A DNA stretch of 64,000 nucleotides from Macrostomum lignano (taxonomy: Eukaryota), in NCBI GenBank assembly GCA_002269645.1, contig NIVC01001186.1, forward strand, positions 1 through 64,000, read 5' to 3'. Shown here one piece after another: positions 10,548 through 60,406 of this stretch; position 1 is the first letter of the stretch, and every line of letters begins with the position of its first letter. The translations under genes were made by a program, and so were the position numbers. Under the pieces are notes generated by a model. It was not told where the DNA came from, did not search any database, and saw only the letters and a list, made by a program, of their open reading frames with translations.

Positions 10548-13500
10548 TTCTGAATGTCTGTCTGTCTGTCTGTCTTTCTGTATGTATGTCTGTCTGCCTA
10601 TCTGTCTGTCTATCTGTCCGTCTGTCTGTCTATCTGTCTTAGTCTCCGTCACAAAATATTTGTCTTGTCTGCTTTAGTCTGTTTAGTTTTTATCAGTCTG
10701 TCTGTGATGCATCTGCGCTGTAGATGTACATTAGTTTGCTTGTTATGCGCACTATCGGCTTCTATCTGTGCATTTCTCTGCATTGCATTTGTCCCAGTCT
10801 TGCGAGTCCATTCAGTGTCGCTGTGAACACATCTCCAGACCGAGCTGCTAGACGAGATGCTCTTCAGCGGCTTAGACGCCATCCTCATCAAAGTGGCCGC
10901 CTACGGCCTGTCGCCAAAGCGCCATCTGGGTCGCCGCCTTGTCGACATTCGCGACGAACTTGTGCGCCTGGCCGCTCCGGCCGCCGGCGGCCTGAGTCCG
11001 TGCGGCGAGGGCGGCGAATATGAGACCCTGGCGTTGGACTGTCCTCTGTTTAAGCACGGCCGAATTGTGCTTGACAACGGGCACTTGACTGCGGCGGGTA
11101 CGGATAGTCGGGTGGTTGTGCATAGCGACGATGCTTTTGCTCCGGTGTGCTATTTGAAGCTGACTGGCTGTTGTCGGCTTGGCGAGCCCAAGGTAAGTTT
11201 GATGGTTGTATTTCCTAATTTAGCTTGAATCCACGGTATCTCAGTGTAGCTTAGCTGTGATTGGTGCAGATTCAATCTAATTTGGGAGTATCTCAGTGTA
11301 GCTTAGCTGTGATTGGTGCAGATTCAATCTAATTTGGGAGTATCTCAGTGTAGCTTGACTGTAATAGGTGCAGACCCAATCTAATTTGGGAGTATCTCAG
11401 TGTAGCTTAGCTGTGATTGGTACAGATTCAATCTAATTTGGGAGTATCTCAGTGTAGCTTAGCTGTGATTGGTGCAGATTCAATCTAATTTGGGAGTATC
11501 TCAGTGTAGCTTAGCTGTGATTGGTGCAGATTCAATCTAATTTGGGAGTATCGCAGTGTAGCTTAGCTGTGATTGGTGCAGATTCAATCTAATTTGGGAG
11601 TATCGCAGTGTAGCTTAGCTGTGATTGGTGCAGATTCAATCTAATTTGGGAGTATCTCAGTGTAGCTTAGCTGTGATTGGTGCAGACTCAATCTAATTTG
11701 GGAGTATCTCAGTGTAGCTTAGCTGTGATTGGTGCAGATTCAATCTAATTTGGGAGTATCTCAGTGTAGCTTAGCTGTGATTGGTGCAGATTCAATCTAA
11801 TTTGGGAGTATCTCAGTGTAGCTTAGCTGTGATTGGTGCAGATTCAATCTAATTTGGGAGTATTTCAGTGTAGCTTAGCTGTGATTGGTGCAGACTCAAT
11901 CTGTACTATTACTATTATATACTTTGTTTCTGATAAAATTGATTACTATTCTCAGGCTGGTCTCGAAGAGTTCAGTGCAAAGCAACCGTCGTCTATCGAT
12001 CGCATATCGCCCGCTGTAATCGAACGAGAATTTCAAATTGACGCCAAAAACTATCCCAATTCACGCGGAGGTTCTTTGTATTGTGATGATGATTCAAACG
12101 ATTTGCCTTCATTGAGATTGTCAGTTATCAATGTTCAAGTTGCTGAACAAAGCGGCGAAATCTCTGTTGCTGAGATGGCCAAGTTATTGATGTCGAAAGC
12201 TAATGCTGCAATCCAGGCTGCTGGAGGTGAGCAGTCGGCTGAGATGCGACCTCTGCTGTGTGTTTTGACAGTAAGTTATAGTTTATGTCGTTGGTTTACA
12301 CATTGTTTATTGATTGAAGGGTGTTTGTAGCTTAGTAGCTAGAGCGCCTGACTCAGGACAGAAAGGTCGTGGGTTCGATTCTTGACCCAATAGAAACAAT
12401 TTGTGCCCTTATCGAGCAAGACGCTTAACTCTGCATTGCTTCAGTTGCCTCAAAATGGGGTAAGCTAGAATAAACTGGGGTAATTGAGGGTGTGTGTGGC
12501 GACCCTTCAGTCCTTGGACTGAATAGCCGTACGCAGCCTTCAGATGCGCCGCGTAATAGCTGCGACTGAGTTGTCGGTTGCACAATATCTTTCCATTAAA
12601 GCTGGTGTAATCAAGTATTATAGTTATTATTGAGTGCTCAACTGTCTCTTAATTTTCCAAATCCCCAAAGCCCATACAAAACTTCACTGCTAACATTTCC
12701 GCTAGTGAAAACTACTCATAGTAGTTTAATTAAAAGAAAGAACTGCTTATCCTTAGAAATTTTTATTTCTAAGAAATCGTTCTCCTTGGTTTTTCGTTTT
12801 CATCAAGCAGTGCAACAACGATCGTATACTCGCTCACACAGGGTGTACAGCACAATAAGCCTTGAATTAAAAACTATTCCAGGTGCCAGACATGTCATCA
12901 TTCGCGTTAGTCAACTATGTCTATGGTTCGCCAGAGCTCGGCTTTGCCAGCCGGCCGGGCTATCGATCGCCGCCAGCGCGAGCTTGCGTTGAACTGGCAA
13001 CAGCAGCGTCTGAAGTGATGTCGGCTTCAATCCTAGTCTTAAAAGAGGATAAGGGATCCGATGCCTCAACAGTGGCCGCTATGCACGTGCGCAGCCGGAG
13101 TCACTGGGCCCCGGCCAACATTGGTCCATATAGTCAGTGTATTGCATTAGCTAATCATCGATTGTTATTAATATCCGGTCAGATTGCTATGGATCCGGCT
13201 ACGCTGGAGATTCCACTAGGCTCCAGTGCTCAGTGGCAAGCCGATCTGTCCTTGCGTCATTCTCTACGAGTAGCCCGTGCCAATGGTTACCAAGGACGCT
13301 TTGGTAGTGGTAGTAACGACTGTAGTTTGTTTATCTGCTTTGGTTTAGATGCCGACTGTCTGTCTGCCGGTGTTGATAGCTTTCAACGATTGATCTGTCG
13401 GGAAAATTCCAGTCGTCTAGTGCTGCCTGCACTCTGCACCGGTCTGCCTAAAGGTGCCAAAGTCGAATGGCTCACCTTTTTAGTTAATGCCAACGATGAT

Positions 13501-13746
13501 ACATTAACTACTAGCATTGAATATGTTGACGAATTGGATGATGTCACGACGCTAATTTCCCGTTGGCAACGAGGTGCTAAAAATAGTCTGGCAGTGTGTC
13601 TGGTCAATGAGACTGCACTAGCTGGGCAGAGCTACGATCTATCATCTAGCATTGCCGGCTTTCCTGTACTGCAGATCCGTTGCCATGGGTTTCTAAGCCA
13701 ACGATATGGCAACTCTGCTGCCGTTGTTGCTAGGCTGAATTTCTAA
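9314..13746 (+). CDS. DPH6: Diphthine--ammonia ligase (Dph6/ATPBD4) with C-terminal RidA (YjgF/YER057c/UK114)-like domains, 660 aa
   Basis: Exons 9314-9565, 10061-10258, 10839-11192, 11956-12270, 12883-13746; all GT-AG, phase 0. Motifs: MKVVGLVSGGKDSC (PP-loop), DSFMYQTVG, EDEVEDLY, GAILSNYQRVRVESVC, PCGEGGEYETLALDCPLF, DMSSFALVNYVY..PPARACVE, HVRSRSHWAPANIGPYSQ. Confidence 0.95.
9711..10037. repeat. 28-bp minisatellite in DPH6 intron 1 (~11 copies)
   Basis: Unit GAGTGCCATTTCCCTTAGGTCATTTAGT. Confidence 0.95.
10365..10640. repeat. (TCTG)n microsatellite in DPH6 intron 2
   Basis: Imperfect TGTC/TCTG repeats. Confidence 0.95.
11236..11902. repeat. 52-bp minisatellite in DPH6 intron 3 (~13 copies)
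   Basis: Unit GTATCTCAGTGTAGCTTAGCTGTGATTGGTGCAGATTCAATCTAATTTGGGA; starts at 11236 and 11288. Confidence 0.95.
12319..12597 (+). mobile_element. tRNA-derived SINE with CORE-like central domain, in DPH6 intron 4
   Basis: A-box-like TAGCTTAGTAGCTAGAGCG (~12328) and B-box GGGTTCGATTCT (12371). 12402-12460 GTGCCCTTATCGAGCAAGACGCTTAACTCTGCATTGCTTCAGTTGCCTCAAAATGGGG resembles the MIR/CORE consensus as recalled from memory. 3' end approximate. Confidence 0.65.
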
Positions 13747-15744: not shown

Positions 15745-15944
15745 CCTAATATTAAGTAATTTTTATAGCATTTCACAACCAATCGCTCATTTCGGCATAG
15801 ATCTTGAAGCAATTTGAATGATTTTATTACACATTTCTGCTCATCTTCAAGCGATTGTCAATCAGTGAGTTCAGTGAATCAAAAAAGCTCCTATAACTGT
15901 ACTGTATTCGAAGTGCGAAATTAAGCTCTGCTGTAAATTAAGCC

Positions 15945-17285
15945 ATGTCAGCAGACACCAGTCCAGACTCCCAGCATCGTAATGCCTCATCTCGCAGTCC
16001 GCTAGCCCAGTTCGAGGCCGCTGTACAAGTTGTTGACAGTCTGCCGCGCGGCTCATCTAGCCAAGCGGTTGCTATGCAAGGCTTCAAGCCGTCAACGGAT
16101 TTAATGCTTCGCTTCTATGCTCTATATAAGCAGGCTAGTAACGGTCCCTGCCAGCAGCCAAGGCCGGCGTTCTGGGATCTGATTGGCAAAATGAAATGGG
16201 ATGCCTGGCGCGCGCTAGGCGACATGCCTCGCGAACGCGCCATGCTGGAATATTCTCGCCAGCTTCGCACTGTGATTGAAAGCCTGCCAAACTCGTCTCC
16301 AGCTGTTAGCGGACTGATTGACAAAGTTGCCAACTTCTATAGGCTTGTTGACGATGATGATGATCAGGAGTCTGAGGTTAAACTCGGCCTTTTATTAGCC
16401 AATCGGATTCGATGTCGAAGCGGCGGGAATTTGGATGCAGAATCAGCCGCCGCCGCAGATTTAGATGTCAATTCCAATTTTCTAACGCAATCGTTGCCGC
16501 CTAAAATCACTAGTAGTAGTAGTAATGATAATAGGAATGGCTTTCTAAGAAATAGTCAGCCTAATCCGCGCCGGAGACAAGCGTCGGAAACGTCAGTTTG
16601 GCCTGCGGCGGCGGTAGTGGCGTCAGCTGCTGTCGATCCAGAACATCCCGACCGAGGCGGCGGCGGCAGCAGCAGCAGCAGCAGCGACAATGACGAATTC
16701 TGCGATTCCTACGACAATTTTGTACAGCCGTTTGGTGATGATCAGCCGGGTGACGTCACCGGCGGTCAGCAGCCTTCGACTTCACCTTCATCTGCATCAG
16801 CCGCAGCCGGCGGCGGTCACCAATCAGCTGGGCGTCGTCAAGGTCGTCAGCAGCAGCAGCAGCAGCAACTGCCTTCGGCTTCAAGCTTCGAGAATAGCAA
16901 CGGGTTGTCATGGCAACCGCCGCTGCCGCCGCCGCCTGATCCTACTGGCCGCTCGGCAGCTGCTGCATCGAGCTTCGAACTTGAGCGCGAACTAGTCGGC
17001 CAACTGAGGCACATCCGAGCCGCTCTGGATCGTCTGTCGGGCGATCTTGGACAGATTCACACCCGTCTAGACAGGCTAGAACGAACTAGTCATAAAAGTG
17101 CATTGTCGGACAGCTCCGGCAGTTTCTACTGCTGGTTTCAGCGGTGGCTGTTCAGCGGCAGAGGTGTCGGCGGCTTGTCGGTACCGGCGCTGCTGCTGCT
17201 GCTGGCCTGGCCTGTGCTCGTCCAGCTGCTATGGCGGCTGCCCTGGAGACGGCTGCGACAGAGGAGGGGTCGGTTGGCGCTCTGA
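15945..17285 (+). CDS. ACBD5: Acyl-CoA-binding domain protein of ACBD4/5 type (ACB domain, FFAT-like motif, coiled coil, tail anchor), single exon, 446 aa
   Basis: ACB domain FEAAVQVV..LRFYALYKQAS.GPC...RPAFWDLIGKMKWDAW..LGDM; SSSSSSDNDEFCDSYD; heptad region LRHIRAALDRLSGDLGQIHTRLDRLE; TM LLLLLAWPVLVQLLW with basic tail RRLRQRRGRLAL. Confidence 0.85.
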   Translation: MSADTSPDSQHRNASSRSPLAQFEAAVQVVDSLPRGSSSQAVAMQGFKPSTDLMLRFYALYKQASNGPCQQPRPAFWDLIGKMKWDAWRALGDMPRERAMLEYSRQLRTVIESLPNSSPAVSGLIDKVANFYRLVDDDDDQESEVKLGLLLANRIRCRSGGNLDAESAAAADLDVNSNFLTQSLPPKITSSSSNDNRNGFLRNSQPNPRRRQASETSVWPAAAVVASAAVDPEHPDRGGGGSSSSSSDNDEFCDSYDNFVQPFGDDQPGDVTGGQQPSTSPSSASAAAGGGHQSAGRRQGRQQQQQQQLPSASSFENSNGLSWQPPLPPPPDPTGRSAAAASSFELERELVGQLRHIRAALDRLSGDLGQIHTRLDRLERTSHKSALSDSSGSFYCWFQRWLFSGRGVGGLSVPALLLLLAWPVLVQLLWRLPWRRLRQRRGRLAL

Positions 17286-39971: not shown

Positions 39972-41078
39972 CTAAGTGTTTATATTCAAATCTCTCATCA
40001 GATTTCCAATGTCAGGCCGCAGTGCCGGAAGTTGAACCTCGGCCCAGATAGGAGCATGCTGCTTTGTGTAATTGCCTAGCAGCTCTCTCATTATTTTCTT
40101 TGTATCAAAGCTTGGCGTAGTCTGTAGTCTCGAGCGTGGTGGCAAGATCAGTGCGAAGTTGTCGATTGGATGTTTTACACTCGGAGCGCTTGTACTGCCA
40201 TCTTCATTGCTAAAGGCTAGAAAAATGTTTGGATGAATCTCATGTCGAAGGTCTTCAGGCCCAATTTTCCAATCGCCACCGATCATGATCAAGTCTGGAG
40301 GTTGGGTTTCGCGGCAAAGCTGATCAAGCTTTTCTTTTAAATTTCTATAAGATGCTTGCTTTTTCTCTTCATTTTTGCTTGGCAGATGTACAGAGAAGTA
40401 GGCCAAGATCATGCCATTGGCTCTCATCTTGAGCTTCGTTAACAGATAGCGGCCCTTGTCGGATGCCGTGAAACACTCATGCTGCAGCTGCCAGACTTCA
40501 GTATTAAAGGCTGTAACGATGGTATCCGGTGGATAACGATTTAGAATGTGGGAGACACATTCCCAATCGGGGCCTAGCAAGTCACAAAATGGTTTCAGGT
40601 TACCCTGTCCGCTCCATTCAGAAACTGTGATTATGCTGAGCTGAGACTTCTGCTTGGCTGACAGAAGTTTTTGGTAACACATTCGAACTTCTTTTTTTAG
40701 CTCTGCCGCAGCTTCCTTCGCAGTTGTCACCTGACCTGCCGGCTGACCTGCCGCCTCTGCCGCCTGACCTGCCGCCTGACCTGCCGCCTGACCTGCCGCC
40801 TGACTTGTCTCATTCCCTGCCTGTTCTGGCTCGAACCACCAATAATTTTTTGTCCGTGTCAACGCATTTACCACATTTCTTAACGCAATTCCCACCTTCT
40901 TCCAATACCCACTCGCCTCATGTAACAACACGTGCTGCGTTGCCGCTGAAAACGCTATTTCAATCAGTCCACTAGGAAGCAAGTCTCCTTTAAGATTTCC
41001 TATTCGACTTGAACCATCCGCGTTGATGGACAGCGCCAAGAAACCAGTGCAGTCAGAGTTGGCTGGCTCGGTCGCCAT
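39972..41078 (-). CDS. Intronless stand-alone endonuclease/exonuclease/phosphatase (EEP, DNase I-like fold) protein, 368 aa
   Basis: EEP motifs in canonical order: LSINADG (N), VLLHE (E), YFSVHLPS (H), IMIGGDWK (D), PIDNF (D), KQHAPIWAEV (H). Open, non-repetitive frame apart from a short QAAG repeat; in-frame TGA 6 nt upstream of the ATG. Confidence 0.7.
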   Translation of the reverse strand: MATEPANSDCTGFLALSINADGSSRIGNLKGDLLPSGLIEIAFSAATQHVLLHEASGYWKKVGIALRNVVNALTRTKNYWWFEPEQAGNETSQAAGQAAGQAAGQAAEAAGQPAGQVTTAKEAAAELKKEVRMCYQKLLSAKQKSQLSIITVSEWSGQGNLKPFCDLLGPDWECVSHILNRYPPDTIVTAFNTEVWQLQHECFTASDKGRYLLTKLKMRANGMILAYFSVHLPSKNEEKKQASYRNLKEKLDQLCRETQPPDLIMIGGDWKIGPEDLRHEIHPNIFLAFSNEDGSTSAPSVKHPIDNFALILPPRSRLQTTPSFDTKKIMRELLGNYTKQHAPIWAEVQLPALRPDIGNLMRDLNINT

Positions 41079-41257
41079 GCTTCACGGCCTTGCGGGTGAT
41101 GAAAATACCGGTCACCGTCAGACAGTCCCTGGTCCCAAAGTCACGGATCTCAGTTCCTCCAGCACTAAGGCCACCTTTTCTGGAAAAATCGTAAAAACGT
41201 ATCATGAGAAAGAATTCAAACTCGTATCTAACAGTTTTTACTTGCGGTAAAAAAAAC

Positions 41258-43785
41258 ACAGAACACTGTCCAATGTGAGGCATGTGCTGTGTACTGGCAC
41301 ACAGAACACTGTCCAATGTGAGGCATGTGCTGTGTACTGGCACACAGAACACTGTCCAATATGAGGCATGTGCTGTGTACTGGCACACAGAACACTGTCC
41401 AATATGAGGCATGTGCTGTGTACTGGCACACAGAACACTGTCCAATATGAGGCATGTGCTGTGTACTGGCACACAGAACACTGTCCAATATGAGGCATGT
41501 GCTGTGTACTGGCACACAGAACACTGTCCAATATGAGGCATGTGCTGTGTACTGGCACACAGAACACTGTCCAATATGAGGCATGTGCTGTGTACTGGCA
41601 CACAGAACACTGTCCAATATGAGGCATGTGCTGTGTACTGGCACACAGAACACTGTCCAGTATGAGGCATGTGCTGTGTACTGGCACACAGAAAACTGTC
41701 CAGTGCGAGGCATGTGCTGTGTACTGGCACACAGAACACTGTCCAGTATGAGGCATGTGCTGTGTACTGGCACACAGAAAACTGTCCAGTGCGAGGCATG
41801 TGCTGTGTACTGGCACACAGAACACTGTCCAGTATGAGGCATGTGCTGTGTACTGGCACACAGAACACTGTCCAATATGAGGCATGTGCTGTGTACTGGC
41901 ACACAGAACACTGTCCAATATGAGGCATGTGCTGTGTACTGGCACACAGAACACTGTCCAGTATGAGGCATGTGCTGTGTACTGGCACACAGAACACTGT
42001 CCAATATGAGGCATGTGCTGTGTACTGGCACACAGAACACTGTCCAGTATGAGGCATGTGCTGTGTACTGGCACACAGAACACTGTCCAGTATGAGGCAT
42101 GTGCTGTGTACTGGCACACAGAACACTGTCCAATATGAGGCATGTGCTGTGTACTGGCACACAGAACACTGTCCAGTATGAGGCATGTGCTGTGTACTGG
42201 CACACAGAACACTGTCCAATATGAGGCATGTGCTGTGTACTGGCACACAGAACACTGTCCAATATGAGGCATGTGCTGTGTACTGGCACACAGAACACTG
42301 TCCAGTATGAGGCATGTGCTGTGTACTGGCACACAGAACACTGTCCAGTATGAGGCATGTGCTGTGTACTGGCACACAGAACACTGTCCAATATGAGGCA
42401 TGTGCTGTGTACTGGCACACAGAACACTGTCCAGTATGAGGCATGTGCTGTGTACTGGCACACAGAACACTGTCCAGTATGAGGCATGTGCTGTGTACTG
42501 GCACACAGAACACTGTCCAGTATGAGGCATGTGCTGTGTACTGGCACACATAACACTGTCCAATATGAGGCATGTGCTGTGTACTGGCACACAGAACACT
42601 GTCCAGTATGAGGCATGTGCTGTGTACTGGCACACAGAACACTGTCCAGTATGAGGCATGTGCTGTGTACTGGCACACATAACACTGTCCAGTATGAGGC
42701 ATGTGCTGTGTACTGGCACACATAACACTGTCCAGTATGAGGCATGTGCTGTGTACTGGCACACATAACACTGTCCAATATGAGGCATGTGCTGTGTACT
42801 GGCACACAGAACACTGTCCAGTATGAGGCATGTGCTGTGTACTGGCACACATAACACTGTCCAATATGAGGCATGAGCTGTGTACTGGCACACAGAACAC
42901 TGTCCAATATGAGGCATGTGCTGTGTACTGGCACACAGAACACTGTCCAGTATGAGGCATGTGCTGTGTACTGGCACACAGAACACTGTCCAATATGAGG
43001 CATGTGCTGTGTACTGGCACACATAACACTGTCCAGTATGAGGCATGTGCTGTGTACTGGCACACAGAACACTGTCCAATATGAGACATGTGCTGTGTAC
43101 TGGCACACAGAACACTGTCCAATATGAGGCATGTGCTGTGTACTGGCACACAGAACACTGTCCAGTATGAGGCATGTGCTGTGTACTGGCACACAGAACA
43201 CTGTCCAATATGAGGCATGTGCTGTGTACTGGCACACAGAACACTGTCCAATATGAGGCATGTGCTGTGTACTGGCACACAGAACACTGTCCAGTGCGAG
43301 GCATGTGCTGTGTACTGGCACACAGAACACTGTCCAATATGAGGCATGTGCTGTGTACTGGCACACAGAACACTGTCCAGTGCGAGGCATGTGCTGTGTA
43401 CTGGCACACAGAACACTGTCCAGTGCGAGGGATGTGCTGTGTACTGGCACACAGAACACTGTCCAATATGAGGCATGTGCTGTGTACTGGCACACAGAAC
43501 ACTGTCCAGTATGAGGCATGTGCTGTGTACTGGCACACAGAACACTGTCCAGTATGAGGCATGTGCTGTGTACTGGCACACATAACACTGTCCAATATGA
43601 GGCATGTGCTGTGTACTGGCACACAGAACACTGTCCAGTGCGAGGCATGTGCTGTGTACTGGCACACAGAACACTGTCCAGTATGAGGCATGTGCTGTGT
43701 ACTGGCACACAGAACACTGTCCAATATGAGGCATGTGCTGTGTACTGGCACACAGAACACTGTCAAATATGAGACATGTGCTGTT
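41258..43785. repeat. 43-bp satellite, ~58 highly homogeneous copies
   Basis: Unit GAACACTGTCCAATATGAGGCATGTGCTGTGTACTGGCACACA. Confidence 0.97.
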
Positions 43786-44439: not shown

Positions 44440-45605
44440 GCTCTGTAGTAGTCTGTATTCTATGTGCTTTGTAGCAGTCTGTATTCTGTGGTCTGTAGTA
44501 GTCTGTATTCTGTGGTCTGTAGCAGTCTGTATTCTGTGGTCTGTACCAGTCTGTATTCTGAATGGTCTGTACCAGTCTGTATTCTGTGGTCTGTAGCAGT
44601 CTGTATTCTGTAGTCTGTAGCAGTCTGCATTCTGTGGTCTGTAGCAGTCTGCATTCTGTGGTCTGTACCAGTCTGTATTCTGAATGGTCTGTACCAGTCT
44701 GTATTCTGTGGTCTGTAGCAGTCTGTATTCTGTGGTCTGTAGCAGTCTGTATTCTGTGGTCTGTAGCAGTCTGTATTCTGTGGTCTGTAGCAGTCTGCAT
44801 TCTGTGGTCTGTAGCAGTCTGCATTCTGTGGTCTGTAGCAGTCTGTATTCTGAATGGTCTGTAGCAGTCTGTATTCTGTGGTCTGTAGCAGTCTGCATTC
44901 TGTGGTCTGTAGTAGTCTGTATTCTGTGGTCTGTAGCAGTCTGCATTCTGTGGTCTGTAGCAGTCTGTATTCTGTGGTCTGTAGCAGTCTGCATTCTGTG
45001 GTCTGTAGCAGTCTGTATTCTGTGGTCTGTAGCAGTATGCATTCTGTGGTCTGTAGCAGTCTGTATTCTGAATGGTCTGTACCAGTCTGTATTCTGTGGT
45101 CTGTAGTAGTCTGTAGTCTGTGGTCTGTATTAGTCTGTATTCTGCATGGTCTGCACCAGTCTGTATTCTGAATGGTCTGTACCAGTCTGTATTCTGTGGT
45201 CTGTAGTAGTCTGTAGTCTGTGGTCTGTATTAGTCTGTATTCTGTACGGTCTGCACCAGTCTGTATTCTGTACGGTCTGCACCAGTCTGTATTCTGCATG
45301 GTCTGCACCAGTCTGTATTCTGTACGGTCTGCACCAGTCTGTATTCTGTAAAGTCTGCACCAGTCTGTATTCTGTACGGTCTGCACCAGTCTGTATTCTG
45401 TATGGTCTGCACCAGTCTGTATTCTGTACGGTCTGCACCAGTCTGTATTCTGTAAAGTCTGCACCAGTCTGTATTCTGTATGGTCTGCACCAGTCTGTAT
45501 TCTGTACGGTGTGCACCAGTCTGTATTCTGTATGGTCTGCACCAGTCTGTATTCTGTATGGTCTGCACCAGTCTGTATTCTGTATGGTCTGCACCAGTCT
45601 GTATT
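44440..45605. repeat. 24-bp minisatellite with two sub-arrays
   Basis: Unit GTCTGTATTCTGTGGTCTGTAGCA, changing to GTCTGTATTCTGTACGGTCTGCACCA after ~45230. Confidence 0.95.
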
Positions 45606-45946
45606 AGTAGTAATAGAAAATTTCGGTCATACCCTATTGTCAATTGCAAAATACGTAATAAGGTACCCGTCAGAAATTTTATTACGCACATACCTTATTT
45701 TTCTATTAAAAATTAAATAGTAAGGTACCGAACCAAATGGTAGGGTATTCTACATGCAGGAATTCCATCTACACTGACACCGTACCCACAAAGAATTCAA
45801 AAGAAGAAAAGATCTCAAGTTGGATCAACCAACCAACTTGTCCGAAAACGCAATATAGGTATATTTCTGCATTACAAGAACAAAGGCAACACATGTGCTG
45901 CAAAGCGTCGTAGGCAAAAATACGCGCGCCGAAACTCATTTCCTCG

Positions 45947-46696
45947 TCAAGGCCCACTACCAAGGAGACGCGTTAAAAAGAATCGAAGACTACCACCACG
46001 AGTCAGTTTGAAATACAAATAAAACAACACCCAAATACCACAATGACCAGTCCGAGGATCCTGAATAGCAAATCGAATGTAGGACCAATTTCGAAAATCC
46101 CCACATTCTCGCCCCAACCACCGTCTACCATTTTCCGGTGGACTTAAACCAAGCGAATCAAAACATTCCCCGACTCTTCGACCACGGCGCCCCCGAACCC
46201 GCCTGCTACTCACCCAAACCGCAACCCAATGCCTACCAGGAAGATTCGAAGTGTCTGTATTCGCCACAAAGAAATAGTCTTTACCATCTAAAGGTAATTG
46301 TCCAAGAATTTGAAGATCTCGGCGGCGCACCCGCGGCATGCATTCGCACTGAAAGCAAATAGCGCTCTCATCCACCCGGAATTTGGCCACACTCACAATG
46401 GACTCCAAGCGGCGGCAGTCCACGGACACGGCCCTGGCCACGGTTTCAAGTAGCTGCGGCATTTGAACCCCGGCCCGCTGTCCCATCCAGGCGCATGCGC
46501 TGGATCTGCGCGCGAAGCGCAGCAACTGAGGGGTTTTGACACCACTCATCCCGTATGTAGCGCGCCAACGTGCTGAAAATTGCCCGGCGGGACGAGCAGG
46601 GCGCTTCTTCACTCTGGGCCGCCCCACGAGGCTCGTTCGATTCTGCCATGGTAAAAATGTAGGTCTAATCTCACTATCTTCGGGCAACTCTGACAC
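45947..46696 (-). CDS. Adenain-like (adenovirus/Polinton-Maverick PRO-type) cysteine protease; true start uncertain
   Basis: FVANTDTSNLPGRHWVAVWV (His, codon ~46231-46229), ECFDSLG (acidic residue), IQDPRTGHCG (oxyanion Gln and Cys 7 residues apart; Cys codon ~46042-46040), WVLFYL. Intronless. Confidence 0.8.
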   Translation of the reverse strand: MSELPEDSEIRPTFLPWQNRTSLVGRPRVKKRPARPAGQFSARWRATYGMSGVKTPQLLRFARRSSACAWMGQRAGVQMPQLLETVARAVSVDCRRLESIVSVAKFRVDESAICFQCECMPRVRRRDLQILGQLPLDGKDYFFVANTDTSNLPGRHWVAVWVSSRRVRGRRGRRVGECFDSLGLSPPENGRRWLGRECGDFRNWSYIRFAIQDPRTGHCGIWVLFYLYFKLTRGGSLRFFLTRLLGSGP

Positions 46697-46874
46697 TAAG
46701 CCTACAATCTGCTCGATTATACGTCAGTGTGGACTCAATGTGGACCCGCGGGCGTTTTGGGTGGCGGCCCCTCGCCGCCCTCCTGCGCCCCAAGAAACCG
46801 AAGCCTGCAGCAACGACCGGCTGGCCCCGGCTGAGGGCCCGCCCCCCGGTCAGCGCACTGGTGAGCTCTACCGG

Positions 46875-47113
46875 GTCATCTATCTCAAAGTCAACTGGCG
46901 TTGCTTGGGCGGCTTCTGGACTCGACGGAGGGAGGGCGACGGTCAGCGCTACGTGTGTGTGTATGGGCGAGGCAAGACCAATTGTGTGTCCAGCAGGTCA
47001 TCTATCTTTACGTCAATTGGCGCCGCTTGGGCGGCTTCTGGACTCGAGGGAGGGAGGGCGACGGTCAGCGCTGTGTGTGGGCGAGGCAAGACCAATTGTG
47101 TGTCCAGCACAGC
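46875..47113. repeat. 122-bp tandem duplication upstream of the protease
   Basis: Copies start at 46875 and 46997 (GTCATCTATCT...GGGCGAGGCAAGACCAATTGTGTGTCCAGCA). Confidence 0.9.
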
Positions 47114-49742
47114 AGGTGTTGGCAGCTGCTGAAACTTCGCCACACAGCACAACTATTGTTTTAAGGAGCGGGCGTCTCGTTTGGAGGATTGGGGGTTGCC
47201 CAGAATTTCAACTTACTCTGCCACGCGCTCAATTGCGCCATTAACTACCACCTGCCACGCAGATCCCTAAGGAGCAGGCAATTGCAGGTTTCGGACAAAA
47301 TTGCATGGAAATAGGGAGCAGCTTCGGGAGCACCGGAATGCATGATGCGGACAAAACTACGTGCAAAAAGAATTCAGAATTTCTCGATTGATATTTGATA
47401 TGCTGAAAAACTACTAGTAGTATTATACACAGTGTTTAAAATTTTCTGATTCGTCAAAACACACAACAGGTGAGAATTATATACAAATTGCTCACAATAC
47501 TGCTTACACTTTCCCTATGACTTGGAAACAGCTCAAGAAATAAAAACCCAGGAGCCCAGGAGCCTTGCCCTGATCGTACACGTTATTTTTACTAAGCATA
47601 AATTAATTTCCAAAGGGATTAGCTCATAAATATTCGGAGAACTGGTTTTCCTATCTTATCCTTACTAGTCTATCCTGGTAGTCTATACTCAACAAAATTA
47701 CAAAAAATGGAGAGGACTGTGTCTGTTGGAGTGCTCGCGTTTGCTCGATAACTTCTGAGCAACTGGCTGGTTCAAACTTGACCGGGTAAGCTCTGAGCGG
47801 TGTAACAAACTCGGGCATGTTATTATAATTTCATCTGGGATCTTCGAATATGTTTTAACAGAGTGAGACATCTGAGACTTACACCCACCGATCGGAGGTG
47901 AAATTCAGTTTTGAAAAGGCAGAGAAGAGACCGTTGGCACATTCTAACTCCCTCAGTGTGTATTGGATGGAGGGTGCTGCGTGTCAGTCAGCTACAATTG
48001 TTATTACTGAGTTTGTAAAAACCACTGCACACATTGGGTAGGGGTAAAAGCAAGTTAGGCAGTTGTCTAATTTATTTAATGGTCACTAGACAGAGGGGTG
48101 GCAGGGTGCTCAAATTTTGATCATTGAAATTCAAACTTGCTTACCAAGAACTTGCTAACTAACAGAGCTGATATTATCGTTTACCTCACTGATCTTACAT
48201 GTAAATTGACTGTTTATGAGTGCTTCTGATTTAAAGTTCAGGGTGCTTTCTCTTAATTGTTCTAGTTTCACTGATGTCTCTTTCACTTTTTAAATACATT
48301 TCACTGTTGCTACACCTTTCAAGTACAAATTTTATGTAGGGCTTGACATGAACGTCATCAAGGGATGCTAAACTTGAGTGTATCCCGGAAAAAGATACCA
48401 TTTAATCTGGACACTATTACTAAAGCTGGCCCCTCTATTCGGACACTATTACATGTACTTTACTTAATATATGTTAAATGATAAGTACAATGAACAGGTC
48501 GTATTTAAACCATTCATTCTGGGCTTTCTATTTTGCATGTGTTGTAAGAGATTTTATCTTTATTTTACACAAGAGATTTTTTCATTCTTTTAATGTGTTT
48601 ATTTTTAACAAAGCTGTAGACTACAAAAACTATAAATATATTTACAAATGGTTACACAGCGAAGGGCGATAGAGAAAAGCAGAAATATAAATGAAAAACA
48701 AAAAATCGGAAAGAGCAAAAGCAAGCAAAAATCCAAGAACTAAGTAATAAAGAGAGCAAAAGTACATATTGTTTGTAGGTAAGAATTTTTTACAATGTTT
48801 TGCAAACACTGAAGCAAAATTTTAGTATTCAGGGTAAATAAAATTTGGTATTTAAATTTAGTGAGCAAAAAATTTAGCGGACAATTAAAAAGTTTATGGT
48901 GAATTTGAAAAGATTCATTTGAAAGGCACTAAAATGATATGAAATTCTAGACTAGTAACTTCTGAAGCCGGAATCTCTGGTCTCCATTTTTGCGCCTTAT
49001 TTAGCGTTTCGGCAGCGACTTTGTAGTCTCGCTTGCCGCCAGCAACTTTGAGTGCCTTCTCCACGATGCGGTATTTGTTGACCCAACCTCTACTGGGTTT
49101 TTCCCCAAGAAATTGCACGTGGATGCTAGTTGCTGCTTGCTGCGGTCATCGGCGCTGGCCATTGGCATCTTTTTTGGTGCCGCCGTCTTTGCTGTGGCAC
49201 CGGTTCTGGCAGCTGCGGCTCGTGGCTTTTTGCCGGCTTTAGACGTGGCCTGAGAAATAAGGAAGATTGTTTTGCAGAAGTTATAGAATAAAGCCTGGTT
49301 GTAACGGTACAAACGACGGCTAGATATTTAAATTCCGATTTATTGCTAATAGTTAGATTATTAAATATACAAATTTTAAAAGCAATTATACGTACATTAT
49401 GTAACTATTCTACGTAAAACTATTATTCGTACTACGCATATTATTATATCATTATATCCCGAAGAGTCTTAAAAACATTCTAAAACTGAAAAACTTACTC
49501 TTTTATAGCGGCCGAAATGATTTTATCAACGATACGGGCCCCGGCACGCCGATACGCCTCCGTGTGCACCTGGTATAGTGTGCCATGACGACCTCGGTGC
49601 TGTGGTTCAGGCGGTCACCAAGGACTTTCAGGTCGTGTCCTTCCAGTAGACCCTATAATTTTTTAATTGCTTCATTAATTAATCTTAAAAACTGTCTCCT
49701 TTTTTCTTCAAGATAAATAAGTAACCTGATAACGCTAAAACT

Positions 49743-50329: not shown

Positions 50330-50361
50330 CGACGAAGATAGCTAAATAAATAGGAGGAAAT

Positions 50362-53300
50362 TTGCATATTGAATCGGTATATTGCGTATCAGTAGCGACA
50401 GAAACTGTGCTGATCAGCGGTGTCGCCATTCCGATGCAGGTCGACACCGGAGCTTCAGTTTCAGTGCTCTCTAGCTACCTCTGGGAATCGCTGCAAGGCC
50501 CCAAATTGGACAAGTATCACCGGCGACTCGAAGCATATGATGGACACACCCTAAAGACATTGGGAAAGCTGTTTACCACCGTGGAGATGCGCGGTCGAAT
50601 TCACCCAGTTGAGCTGATGGTGGTTTCATCCTCAAAGAACTTCGGCCTGCTAGGACGCGATCTTCTAGATTGCGACGCCGTATTCCACGCAGCCACCACT
50701 GCCACAGCTGTGCCTGCCAATGAACCACTGCCGACCATCAAGGGCATCAAAGCGAGCATGGAGTTGATTGAAGGCGCCAGCCAGGCCGCAGTTCTGCCGC
50801 GCTCGCCCAGTTCCGCTTGCACTGGAACTGCAAGTCAATGCCGAGCTCGAGAGACTGCAGCAGCTGGGTGTCATCGAGCCCATTCAGGGCCCGGTAAGCA
50901 ACGCCTCGCCTGTTGTTTGGGTTAAAAAGAAAGATGGCTCACTTCGAATGTGTGCCGATTACAAAGTGCTCGTCAGTGGGAAAATAAATTCAGACGCTCT
51001 GCTTATTCGCAAATAGCTCTCGATGAGTCTGCGGAGGAACTATCAGTGATCAACACCTCAAGCGGCCTCTACAAATGGGCATGAAAAACGCCTCCTTCAT
51101 TTTTCAAAGAGCCATGGAAAGCATTCTATCTGACCTCAAAGGCATCCTTATCTACCAAGATGATGTCCTAGTCTTTGCAGGGAATTCTGAAGCACTCGGG
51201 AAGCGGCTGAATGCGGTCAAAACCAGGCTCGCAGAGAAGAAATTGACCATCAACGAAAGCAATTCCATAAACATTTGCGATGAAATTTCCTTTCTTGGAT
51301 TCAAAATCTCCGCATCTGGGATTCAGCCTGATGACCGCTTAGTTGACAAGATCCTTTATATAGCCGCTCCCAGCTCCAAGAAGGAAGTTGAGCAGTTCCT
51401 TGGCCTAGTAATTTTTTTGGCCGTCTGATACCTAATTTCTCCGCTAAAGCCGCTCCGCCGAACAGCCTTCGGAAGGGAAACTCATCCTTCGACTGGTCCG
51501 ATGAGTGCACTCACGCATTTGAGGCGCTCAAGCGAGAAATCTCATCCCGGCCTGTGGTGCAGCCTTACAGCCTCGAGAAAGAGGCCACTCTCACCACTGA
51601 CGCCTCCAAAGGTGCGCTTGCTGCTGTTTTGACCCAGGACGGGCACCCCGTGATTTACATCTCCAGGACTCTCATCCGCAGAAGCTAACTACTCAAACAT
51701 CGAGCGAGAAGCCCTGGCGATTTTCTGGGCAATCCATAGGCTTAAACACTATCTGCAAGGCCGGAAATTCACCATTCGGACTGATCACCAATCTTTGCTT
51801 CGTCTCTTTGGTGGCAGCATCCCATTGAACAGCCGATGGGCGCTGTTTCTAATGCAATTTGACTTCACTCTGGAATACTTACAAGGGACGAAAATTCCTC
51901 ATGCCGACGCGCTTTCCCGACTCCGGTTCGAAAACGCGGATCTTGAGCCTAGCAGTACCTTTTGGGCGGTAAACTGCGTTGTCTTTCAATCCCCAACCAT
52001 CGATCCACAAAGAATAGTATCCGAAATGGAGTCCGACAGACTTCTCGAACGAATAGTTCGCCGCATTCGGTCTGGAGACTGGCAAGACTGCACACAAGCA
52101 GAGGCAGCCTTTAAGAAAGTCGCGGAATGCCTGACCCTAGAGAATGGCCTGATCTACATGCGCCGCCGAGCATTCATTCCACCAAGGCTCAGACGAGAGG
52201 CCTTCGACACAGTGCATGACACTCATACGGGTTCCAACGCAGCGCACAAGCTGCTTGCACAGACCTGTTGGTGGCCCGGTATGCAGAGGCACGTGGAGCA
52301 ATTCGTTTATCAATGCCAGGCATGCACTCATTTGAGACCTCGTTTGCAAAAAACTCGGGACACTTGGCCACCTGCCACCGCTCCGTTTCAAAGAGTTGCA
52401 CATGGACTGGGCTTTTGTACCGGCCGTTGGCAACATCCTCATCGTGGTTGACGCTTACTCGGGCTGGATCGAAGCTTTCCCGACAAAAGACAGATCGGCA
52501 GACAGCGTCATCACCTCATTGCGAACAGTTTTTACTCGTTTTGGTGTTCCGGAGCTGGTTGTCTCAGACAACGCAGCGGAGTTCACCTCGGCTCCACTAT
52601 TGGCCTGGTTGGAAAAGAACGATGCTCGTAAGACGGAGAGCCCTCCATATTCCCCTCAATCTAATGGTGCAGCCGAGCGAGCCGTCCAGACTATCAAGAA
52701 GGCCTTGTGAGCATGGACCCAGCGTCTAACACATGGCAGCTTTATCGCTTTTTTGCAGAAGGCTCTTATACACCATCGTAATTCTTCGAAGTCACGCAAA
52801 CGAACACCTGCCGAGCTCGTTCTAGGTCGACGACTTCGAGTTCCGGTGGTCTCCACCTTCCAGCAGGGTGACCCGGTGCAGTACAAGACCCACGGCGACA
52901 CCACAAGCTCTCGAGCAGAGTTTCCTGATGTCGCAGGGGCGCAACACTTCCTGGCTACTGACGGGCGCTAAACTACAACTGGCCTCAAACAATCAATTCG
53001 GCCCGCTAGTTACTGCCTCTGAAGCTGATGAGGAAGAAGAGGAGGTTCACCAACAGCCACAAGCTGACGCGTCTGAGGCTCCCCCTGAGACCGCCCCGAC
53101 AAGAAGAAGCACAAGGGTAAAGAATCTCCTGAATCGCTTTGTGCCGTAGGCTCGGACTGATCAAGCCATAATCGAGCTATGTCACTGAATTTTTCAAGTC
53201 TACTGGCTAGTTCTCAAAGTTTGATTGTTTGACTGATTGGCGTTTTGTGGGCGCTATCTATCGTCTCCTTTTGCAGATGGGGACATGTGGTAGTAGCTGC

Positions 53301-56847: not shown

Positions 56848-58112
56848 TCAGTAGCACTTGAACTTCATTACGGTGCGTTTCATTGGAACATATCCGCGTC
56901 CGGGTATATGGACGGTGTTATAAGTAGGATTGTTGGTGATTTTCTTGTCGGTTGTGTAAGCTCCGTTGATGTTGCATCCGTGGCACGCTTTGTACCACCA
57001 TCCGCCGTAGCCAAACTTCTGCGAGCAGGAGCCGCCTCTGTGTGCGTCATGATCTTTGTCGTAGGTGCTGAAGCGACCCCCATTGTGCCAGACGAACGCG
57101 GTGCCAAGAGCTGTCTTACCAACCTGCTGACCGACACGCAATAGGTATCGCTGCTCTGGGCCCAGCACTTCGAACATTCTAAACTCTGCCTTGTACTTTT
57201 TACCGTCGAAGCTCTGGGTTTCGAGCCGCAGTCGGCAGCGAGCGGTGGCTTTGTAGCCGTTCTTTATGCTGGTCTTGGTCATCTCTGACAGCCGATCTAA
57301 GCCTGCAATGGTTTTTGGTTCGTGTATTATGCGTCATACTTTATGACATCCTTGTTGCGGTTTGGCGCATGCATGCGGATTCTAGAGAGAGACTCACCCA
57401 TCCAGTAGTTCGATCTGGGATTTCCAAATCCCTTCACGTAGGCGTCCCAATTCTGGGCGAACGAGAGGCTGCCGTCCACTCGCCTCTGGAAGACGATCCA
57501 GCGGCGCCGGTTGCACCTCAGCCTCGGCAGGCTCGCGCCCCTCACTGCGCCGAACCTCACCGGACTGCTTCCGACTCGGCCGAACGCTTCGAACTGCAGC
57601 GCCTCGGCCACGTCCGACGGGTTGCTGAGGAGCTCCTCTCTGAGGTACTGACACCTGCGGAAAGAGCTGCACAGGAAGACAAGATCAGCTGACCTGCCCG
57701 AGTTTTTCAAAATTGTCATCAACGAGAGACCAGACTGACGGCTCGACAGGCCTTTGTTCGCCTTCACTTTCAGTCCGGTGATGGTCACCTGTCCGACTTT
57801 CTTCGAGCCATCCTTGGCCGATCGCAAGGTGTTGGCATCGATGCTAACGGACAGAGTCAAGCGGTACTTCATGTACACTCGGCTGTACTTCAGCGCGTTG
57901 CAAGAAGCCCGGAAGGCAACCCTGGGCTCGGCTACTTGGACTCCGTCGATTTCAAAGACGTTCAAAGACGATCCTCGGAATTTTGTTGTGCCAACACGAG
58001 CGAAGCTGTTCACGTCCGTGTACAGCTGCTGCTGCTGATAGCCGCTTCCTAGCGCCGGAGAGGCCCAGCAGGCAACGCCCAACAGAACAGCGATGAGAGT
58101 CCAGCACTGCAT
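56848..58112 (-). CDS. Secreted fibrinogen-related domain (FReD/FBG) protein, 2 exons, 389 aa
   Basis: Exons 58112-57398 and 57302-56848 (phase 1, GTGAGT..CAG; 1170 nt). Signal peptide MQCWTLIAVLLGVACWASPALG. FBG motifs WIVFQRRVDGSLSF..NWDAYVKGFG..NYWMGLD, FSTYDKDHD, C..GGWWYKAC..CNING. Confidence 0.9.
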
Positions 58113-60406
58113 TTTCGCGCTGAAAGAAACTGAAAAGAAATTATTTAGTTTCTTCCGACTGAGGCGCTTCGAAAGCCGCTCAATAGACGGTCTATTTATC
58201 AAATCTTGCCCGGAGCTGAAAGGAACGCCCACATAAGTCAAACAGTTTTGCGAAAAATTATGAGACAGGTGCAAACCGAAGCGGCGCTGTCAGTTTTTTG
58301 GAGTCCAGCTCAGCAGCTGTTGGACAGTAAATGCAGTCTGTATTGGCATGATTGCAGCTACAGATATACAGCATGCATTTTGCAGTATCTAAAACGCATG
58401 CATACCATTTATCCATGTAATTCTCCAGAAATTTTAGCTTCAGAAGATTATTGATTTATTATTATTATTATTATTGATTTATTGCGATAGAAGACTGCTC
58501 AAAATAATTTTGCATGCTGAGAAGCTTTTTTTTATTTGGAGAGAAGTCTATTGGGAGATTCTCCTTGTATTATGGATACTTCCTTTTTTTCTATTGCAAA
58601 CAGCCAAAGCAGTCTTTAGATTCTTGATTTCACGGTCTGTAATCTTGCCCACTCGTTTTGAAACCATAGATATTATATTCCTGTGTATATGATCGTTGAT
58701 TGAAACGAGGTTGAAACTGCACGGAAAGTCCATCTAAGTTTGTCTGTGTCCTAAAGACCATTGATGTCAGTGCAAAGTCTGCCGTCAATGGCGTTCTACA
58801 TGTATTTTTGTCAAAACATCAGGGGATTTCAAAATAGCTGTTTGTCAAGGCCTATGCTATTTGCCATGCACAGACACTCAAAAATGGTGCGGTAGAGTAC
58901 GTTGTAAGCATAAAAGTAAGTTGATGCATTACGAGCTGTCTATGGCCGAGAGTTTATTAATCAGTTTAGACTTGAATACTCGGAAATTTCTTAAGTTGAT
59001 TTTTTGAAATCAAAATAATAGTTTGTGTGGTAACTGAGAGATTCAATTTAGGCTACTGAGAAAAAATTAGATCAGTCGGAATTTGATTCGTAAAATCTTC
59101 CACAAAGACCGAAAATTTTAGATCGCCATTGTAATTATACTTTTACCCAGACGCAATGAAAAAATATTTTGGCAATTGTTCCACAGTTTTGATGTGTACC
59201 ATAGACATTTGGATTGAAAAAATCCATCGCTCAGTATTTTTGTTAATAAATACAGAACGACAAGAAGTAAATGAACAAAAAGGAAAAAAATCATTAAAAC
59301 TAAAGTACCAGATACACGAAAAGAGTTAATAATAAATGTCACAGCTAGTGCAGTTTATCAGTTTGTAGTCGAAATTTGACAATGTAAAAATCAATTTGTC
59401 AACCAAAGTGAAACATGCAGTTCTCAAAGCCGCAGTTTCCAAAGATGCTCGACACTTAGCCTGATGATTTGGCACTGCAAAAGGAGTTGGTCTATGTTGA
59501 ATGTTTTCTATGAAAGAGAAATACAGGTGCTCAAGTATAGTTGCCGAACTTACCATTTGAAAGATGCACGACTTGGTTAAGTTGGCATGCGACTGATGAG
59601 CTTCGTCTGATGAGCTTCTTTGGTACCGCAGTATCCAAGCTGGGATTCTTTGGGACTGTCGGCTGCTCGACTGAATCGATTGGCCGCTTTCAGGCAACGT
59701 TTATAGCCGTCGAGGCGTTGAGGACTGCATGGTCGCGTTTTCTTCCTAGGTAGCGCCGCACGGTTCGTTCAGTCGTCGACAGGAAGATTTTTCCAATTAA
59801 TAAGCGCGACTGTTTGACGAGATGCACTATAGCCATAGTTGTTTGACAAGACAAATAGCTTTTTCTCCCACTACTCGCTTTCCTGATTTCTTGCAAGACG
59901 CAAGCGAAACCAGCACTCATCACAGTGTTGTCTATGGTCAAACTAAGCCACACAACTCAGTTGTCTATGGGTAAAACAACTCCTAACACAGCCAATTGAA
60001 GCATGATAAAAAGTGTGGAATAATGACGGCGACAAAAGTGTGGAATAATGGCCGCAAAAGTGTGGAATAATGACTGCGCTCTGAGTGAAAGTATAAATAC
60101 AATGCACTTGTATTTACGCGCACTCGAGTTTTGGCCATTATTCAACTCAGTTGCATACTATACAATCTACCATTCTTTCACTGCAAACTCGACTGCTCTC
60201 GATTAATTGGTCTGCACAATTGCAAACTTTAAGTGTCACAATACCTAGGGAGGGCGAATCATTCTCCTTTATCCATGTGTGCTCAGCTGTCTGCAGCCAT
60301 GGTTACTGTATTTAAGCTATTCCCACCCAACTTGCAAGGCGGGCAGAAACGATGAATTGTAAAAGTGAATCAGACACGAGATTCGTTTCTCGATCCGATG
60401 TGTATG

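Follow-up and report, generated by a model that had tools for sequence, protein, structure and literature searches.

Does a viral protease with all of its catalytic motifs, encoded in a long open frame apart from other viral genes, mark an enzyme taken over by its host, or is it what is left of an endogenous virus-like element? The question is raised by a locus in Macrostomum lignano (contig NIVC01001186.1, positions 1 to 64,000; this whole 64,000-nucleotide stretch is called the window below), for which a preliminary description had offered both readings. We regard it as highly probable that the locus holds a truncated Polinton/Maverick protease gene in a 1.65-kb remnant, that this gene is very likely a pseudogene, and that it probably arose when the gene's 3′ part was duplicated in inverted orientation at the opposite end of the element.

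Results

Open frame and catalytic motifs

The chimeric open frame (45947-46723, minus strand) runs from 46723 to a stop codon at 45947-45949 and comprises 258 codons from stop to stop. Its four ATGs (codons 59, 80, 88 and 129) all lie upstream of the protease-derived part, homology to proteases being confined to codons 140-258, and the start first proposed, 46696, is a GTG within non-protease DNA. The motifs that drew attention to the frame are real: NTDTSNLPGRHWVAV, FDSLG and Q-x6-C are all present. The catalytic His (minus strand, 46229-46231), in the PGRHW of the frame motif NTD..PGRHWVA, is invariant in 113/113 aligned sequences; the catalytic Asp of FDSLG (minus strand, 46157-46159) is kept in at least 90% of the 113 rows; and the oxyanion Gln (46061-46063) and catalytic Cys (46040-46042) of the Q-x6-C motif (minus strand, 46040-46063) are both invariant, with a spacing of six residues in 110 of 112 sequences. 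These matches are not due to chance: a profile of 105 database homologues, built without the copies from this genome and without the two nearest database hits, matched the frame at E = 2.3e-26 with residues 146-243 aligned, and the runner-up among the 1,087 frames of the window in the same search reached E = 0.28.

The Arg-rich insert between His and Asp that had been pointed out is also present, as SSRRVRGRRGRRV (minus strand, 46172-46210), and falls between strands E70-75 and E89-92 of the full-length model. The His-Asp spacer is 21-23 residues long in five subfamily representatives of this genome and three database hits, and the commonest length is 15 (70/112); compared with Polinton/Maverick proteases at large, this lineage's loop thus exceeds the usual 15 by 6-8 residues and is Arg-rich in some subfamilies, the long spacer containing 1-7 Arg/Lys. 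Judged from these alignments, the insert is an inherited trait of the lineage and not peculiar to the window copy. Adenain depends on DNA, and by analogy one might guess that the Arg-rich loop binds DNA.

Identity of the protein

A comparison with PF00770 had been proposed as a check, and in this Pfam falls short. Its sole match to the window frame is Ulp1 C48 (E = 0.28); the best values for family members are E = 0.0022 for C5 and 0.033 for C48; and a full-length copy, from the element in C2529, has no Pfam match at E ≤ 0.05. Pfam alone is insufficient; the identity of the protein as a Polinton/Maverick-type protease rests on the genomic context of its relatives and on the fold of the full-length copy. 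A word-indexed protein search gave three matches among 307 candidates, and the profile search gave 8,532 at E ≤ 0.001. Matches to Toxin A repeats in the PDB were short, of low score and confined to one 19-43-residue stretch, and this likeness was disregarded on those grounds.

The model of the full-length C2529 protease, made from 112 sequences, has a pLDDT of 92. Adenovirus proteases take the first five places among its PDB matches (E from 2e-7 to 1e-6), ASFV pS273R comes next, and Ulp1 stands at rank 26. Adenain (PF00770; 1avp, 1nln, 4wx4) thus resembles the full-length relative in fold (ranks 1-5, TM 0.53-0.62) and in the order His-acid-Gln-Cys, but sequence identity is 16-20% and the Pfam score stays under the cut-off, at the C5 value given above. 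Adenain has Glu where the Polinton protease has Asp. By sequence, the best match is ASFV pS273R (6lj9), at E = 3.9e-4 for the window frame (phmmer against the PDB) and 7.6e-14 for the family profile, with NTD...G.HWVA and ECG/HCG aligned, although there is no common gene context; pS273R is a larger enzyme, which processes polyproteins in a large DNA virus.

The AlphaFold2 model of the window protein is mostly above pLDDT 90 in residues 151-250 and mostly below 50 in 13-85 and 103-121; a short strand (123-125) and a helix (88-105) have pLDDT 52-73 and count for little, because the residues made to align in those columns are unrelated. By fold, this model is most like CidB DUB, NopD and ASFV pS273R, with adenain 1avp at rank 12. 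Together with C48 as the frame's one Pfam match, these ranks could be read as the mark of a clan CE protease, cellular (Ulp1/SENP-type) or bacterial, without relation to Polintons, and the clan CE fold and catalytic order are indeed shared with Ulp1/SENP (PF02902). We give this reading practically no credence. The matches to Ulp1/SENP reach E values of 0.033-0.28 only, rank lower by fold and come without a cellular gene context, whereas near-identical copies of the protease lie inside Polintons, adjoining capsid and integrase genes. A best match to a cellular Ulp1/SENP protease had been named in advance as the outcome that would tell against a viral origin; the full-length fold instead favours adenovirus proteases, and genomic context has already refuted the unrelated cellular or bacterial reading.

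Full-length relatives in the genome

Described at first as an orphan, the protease is nothing of the kind in its own genome. A search of its 764 Mb in 5,269 contigs for the protease scored 117 candidates and yielded 107 matches; for pPolB, 91 of 974 candidates were scored, with 119 matches (in neither case do matches equal copy numbers). Close relatives of the window copy stand at the end of full two-ended elements. Full-length relatives carrying pPolB, capsid and integrase genes, for which a search had been recommended, do exist; the example in C2529 (17164-35936, 18,773 bp) starts with AGTAGT, ends with ACTACT and has the target duplication CAGGTC. Its ORFs, all on one strand, encode a TBP-like domain, a deoxynucleoside kinase, pPolB with an endonuclease VII domain, a dUTPase and an A32-like ATPase, followed by a presumed penton, an unknown ORF, an rve integrase with chromodomain, the capsid and, last, the protease; the gene order in C889 is the same. 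The protease gene of full-length relatives comes last in the gene order, behind the major capsid gene, and ends about 270 bp short of the right terminus.

Assignments of the other genes vary in strength. pPolB was matched by PF03175 at E = 1.2e-16 (C2529) and 2.8e-12 (C1668), with no match in the window remnant. The rve integrase, accompanied by a chromodomain, was matched by PF00665 in three elements (E = 7.6e-6, 5.3e-7 and 2.8e-6), each just under the curated cut-off, and the packaging ATPase by PF04665 Pox_A32 in three (E = 0.002-0.024), weakly and below the cut-off, with a P-loop visible in the ORFs. The double jelly-roll major capsid protein, without a direct Pfam match, was assigned through Atlas features (0.98 to clusters with 14-24% PF21738 members); the capsid proteins of C2529 and C1668 are 75% identical. 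The ORF after the ATPase, conserved at 328-342 codons in five elements and without a Pfam match in the three scanned, is presumed from its position to encode the penton or minor capsid protein. Two-ended relatives have terminal inverted repeats with (AGT)2/(ACT)2 ends and a 6-bp duplication, which is exact in 9 of the 15 two-ended elements examined, at five distinct sites.

In these respects the relatives agree with Polinton/Maverick elements and their protease PRO ("Adenain" of adintoviruses) as presented in PMC8097293, PMC4028283 and PMC8502044: the motif set, the position of the protease after the major capsid gene, AGTAGT ends, 6-bp duplications, and lengths of 14-19 kb with pPolB, integrase, ATPase and capsid genes. 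The core genes of C2529 lie on one strand, like those of the Xenopus tropicalis elements and unlike the usual convergent vertebrate layout set out in PMC8097293.

Several further features of the family were observed. In the long elements (C2529:20515-21594, C1668 and C889) the TBP-like domain stands beside the deoxynucleoside kinase, in one 439-codon frame in C1668 and in overlapping frames in C2529 and C889; it was matched by PF00352 at E = 8.8e-7, above the cut-off, and by TBP structures in the PDB down to E = 2.4e-5. TBP-like genes of related viruses from non-animal datasets are named in a figure legend of PMC8502044. At C4072:8000-28000, capsid and protease are about 8.5 kb apart, bounded by a 1.3-kb inverted repeat (89.5%); this interval, in a subfamily with 18 near-identical protease matches, holds a reversed piece of pPolB and is an inversion or a nested element. 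Two-ended deletion derivatives of 1.9-2.9 kb contain little but protease sequence (C1729/C2893, C273/C1391 and C679/C1153/C2550). A transposing family of protease-only mini-Polintons was considered and rejected, the 1.9-, 2.1- and 2.8-kb derivatives each representing one insertion site with its own deletion. A search for group I introns gave no Rfam match in 13 loci (118 kb).

Anatomy of the one-ended remnant

The element in the window is a one-ended Polinton/Maverick remnant of left-end type and about 1.65 kb (45606-47260, plus strand), its right border being approximate (47226-47263). Homology to relatives begins at the first base of an AGTAGT terminal motif (45606-45611, plus strand), a motif given for Mavericks in PMC8097293. 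The motif opens the terminal inverted repeat core of the family (45606-45870, plus strand), for which 75 candidates in the genome, 40 of them scored, gave 46 matches of 83-97% identity, a single one of them in this contig. A host 24-bp satellite (44442-45605, plus strand) abuts the terminus, with the same 12 flanking bases in three homologous loci, and DNA from 47264 on matches four loci that have no remnant. A second terminus was found neither in the window or the next 10 kb nor, among the 40 of 75 candidates scored, elsewhere in the contig. As far as the sequence allows a judgement, this element with one terminus, in place of two termini and a target duplication, is a remnant and not a whole element. 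A palindrome, ACTACTAGTAGT (47410-47421), was considered as a right terminus and discarded; it lies in the DNA shared with the four remnant-free loci (C2583, C2584, C675 and C2184) and forms no inverted repeat with 45606.

When the 13 ORFs of a full-length relative were compared by tblastn with the window and the next 10 kb, no pPolB, integrase, ATPase or capsid gene was found, in agreement with what had been noted from the letters; the one ORF to give a match came from the left arm. The suggestion of a deleted endogenous element of Polinton/Maverick or adintovirus type is borne out and can be made exact, as a 1.65-kb one-ended remnant with two-ended relatives. Elsewhere in the window, frameshifted pieces of an LTR-retrotransposon pol (50350-53150, plus strand; aspartic protease, RNase H and integrase) are 98.8-99.2% identical in two homologous loci, and their integrase is unrelated to the Polinton remnant. 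An uninterrupted 369-codon frame without Pfam match (39972-41081, minus strand), also present in C3476 at 97%, has Atlas features at 0.93 to mostly bacterial endonuclease/exonuclease/phosphatase clusters, with 141 of 256 features shared; that it is a divergent EEP gene or a retroelement endonuclease is a lead only. Probable host exons at 12871-13746 and 15942-17285 (plus strand) and 57327-58289 (minus strand) match RidA/L-PSP (E = 2.2e-6), acyl-CoA-binding protein (E = 4e-23) and a fibrinogen C-terminal domain (E = 3.9e-11).

The remnant matches both ends of a full-length element. Over 45606-46310 it shares 92% identity with the right end of C2529, and from there on it follows the left end of that element; with the left end itself it is collinear over 45606-45805, 45745-45867, 46150-46337, 46420-46750 and 47116-47226. 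The breakpoint between protease-derived and left-arm DNA (46307-46320) is common to the window, its homologue in C3235, C393, C1376 and the C2529 left end, and in an alignment of eight ends three right-end copies run on at this point into the 5′ part of the protease gene. C393 and C1376 were called left ends from sequence, their partner ends not having been located. Contigs of two public runs from two studies, one of which may be the source of the assembly, bridge the breakpoint. The left-arm DNA beyond it (46310-47226, plus strand) has 73-87% matches to left arms in C2529, C1378, C1839, C1130, C3475 and C1157, includes a local tandem duplication of about 122 bp (46867-47109, plus strand), and supplies, on its minus strand, codons 1-139 of the open frame. 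In runs X2, X15 and X17, contigs have left-arm DNA joined at 47142 to the beginning of a further terminal repeat (45641 in window numbering), which suggests a different rearranged or nested copy elsewhere.

Given the shared breakpoint, the collinearity with a left end and the lack of a partner terminus, we read the remnant as probably a left end of about 1.65 kb in which the protease gene's 3′ part is present as an inverted duplicate. It might instead be a right end of the same family, in the same non-functional state, in which a local deletion or inversion joined a cut protease gene to left-arm DNA. The window does keep 45868-46145, which is deleted in the other left-type ends examined, and in its protease part identity is 94-96% with the closer right-end copies and 87-88% with three more distant ones, compared with 81-94% with left-type ends. 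A right end is nevertheless unlikely: the breakpoint and the left arm that follows it match the verified C2529 left end and two other loci, and collinearity with that left end extends from the terminus to 47226.

Truncation and functional state

Full-length copies of the protease are 187 residues long from Met. The protease-derived part of the window frame (45947-46306, minus strand; codons 140-258) corresponds to their residues 44-162, in accord with the 146-243 aligned by the independent profile, and joins them at residue 44, that is at window codon 140 and base 46306. The first 43 residues, including the start Met, have been exchanged for unrelated left-arm DNA. Lost with them are a helix (13-23) and a strand (30-37) of the full-length model (pLDDT 92); the strand is occupied in 112/112 homologues and its Gly kept in 111/112. 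The window stop comes 25 codons early, in an alignment with the C2529 copy that is ungapped across it, and takes away most of helix 167-185. The catalytic set described as intact is therefore intact in its residues, the His-Asp-Gln-Cys set of a Polinton PRO or adenain-type protease all being kept, but not as a gene: the 5′ part is gone, and the copy lacks a complete domain with the N-terminal strand, its conserved Gly and a native start. Unlike other Polinton/Maverick proteases, it lacks 43 N-terminal and 25 C-terminal residues and lies in a left-end inverted duplicate.

Three further contigs contain this locus between matching flanks, at 95-97% identity, and by this likeness the four copies are one insertion, duplicated later or present as haplotypes. 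The protease part has an internal stop in 3/3 of the other locus copies, and their upstream frames are different, with frame shifts among copies of the left arm. Between the window and these three copies dN/dS is 0.86, 0.80 and 0.22 (5-10 changes each), and the changes private to the window, three nonsynonymous to one synonymous, are at the neutral ratio, with small counts. Against seven closer copies, from right ends, dN/dS is 0.25-0.76, and between subfamilies it is 0.12-0.27 where dS is computable. The values below 1 against right-end copies reflect a path much of which runs through formerly functional copies. By these comparisons the protease is kept across the family, and at the window locus there is no sign of conservation (small counts); changes among the locus copies look neutral, again on small counts.

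Even the open frame of the window may be exceptional. The breakpoint-bridging contigs of two public runs carry the indels of the sister copies and not those of the window, and contigs of X15 and X17 depart from it both in the stop codon and in two indels further upstream, although contigs drop rare variants; the long frame may therefore be a rare allele or an assembly error. Contigs from four public runs, two of them guessed to be RNA, cover mostly the protease part, with many differences and sparse cover of the left arm, and have no bearing on expression; one continues into the protease 5′ part as full-length copies do.

These observations bear on domestication, the other reading offered at the outset. 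In that case the left-arm frame would have given the protease a new start and N-terminus, and the product would serve the host, for example on ubiquitin-like substrates. The intact catalytic set, the four upstream ATGs, the open 258-codon frame and a core that folds in silico and resembles clan CE enzymes would all suit such a protein. A domesticated gene should have its open frame fixed in all locus copies under purifying selection; what we find are internal stops in all three sister copies, differing upstream frames, neutral-looking changes among the locus copies (small counts), loss of a near-universal strand and of the gene's 5′ part, an early stop, and breakpoint-bridging contigs with the sister indels (with the reservation that contigs drop rare variants). 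We judge a domesticated or nascent host protease very improbable and the window copy very likely a non-functional fossil. The titles and abstract openings of the literature searched contain no account of a domesticated Polinton protease, which is not proof that none has been published.

Discussion

How, then, did the 3′ part of a right-end gene come to stand inverted at a left end? The product of the full-length gene would, like adenain, cleave virion precursor proteins, using a His-Asp-Cys triad. Polinton proteases are treated as virion maturation proteases in PMC4028283 and PMC8502044. In an ancestor of the remnant, we infer, the terminal inverted repeat extended inward until it measured about 700 bp, which would have copied the 3′ part of the protease gene to the left end, beside left-arm DNA; strand-displacement replication with template switching in a panhandle would be the likely route. 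One such element would then have inserted at the window locus and lost everything beyond about 1.65 kb, and the long open frame would be an accidental read-through from left-arm DNA.

Inward growth of the repeat is supported by the sister element C1668. There, each terminus carries a 1,588-bp repeat (C1668:27365-28952 and 41380-42967; 99.6% identical) that includes an entire protease gene together with the 3′ portion of the capsid gene; a 6-bp target duplication was not seen in this element. Terminal repeats of vertebrate Mavericks span 46-1,447 bp according to PMC8097293, so long repeats are not unusual. When the 157 bases retained by left and right ends alike were used for a tree (19 rows), the left-end copies did not form one group, so that the sole argument for a single origin of the duplicate is the shared breakpoint.

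On at least two occasions, it appears, the terminal repeats of this group of two-ended, gene-rich Polintons extended into terminal genes. We give an even chance to the proposition that the remnant captures one instance of a process that recurs, the duplication of terminal genes by inward growth of Polinton terminal repeats (about 70% of the protease gene in the left ends of this subfamily, the whole protease and part of the capsid gene in the sister subfamily of C1668). Capture of genes by Polinton terminal repeats is not mentioned in the titles and abstract openings of the literature searched, which is not proof of absence.

For the locus itself the import is small, degraded Polinton fragments being the common state of such elements; among vertebrate Mavericks, 96% of copies are degraded, by the figure in PMC8097293. 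The window copy also stands as a caution that intact catalytic motifs in a long open frame do not amount to an intact or a domesticated gene. For the family, growth of repeats into terminal genes bears on how Polintons replicate and repair their ends. If the recurring process is real, remnants of this kind would provide genomic evidence for end-to-end template switching in protein-primed Polinton replication, and would supply inverted copies of a virion gene from which double-stranded RNA directed against that gene could form.
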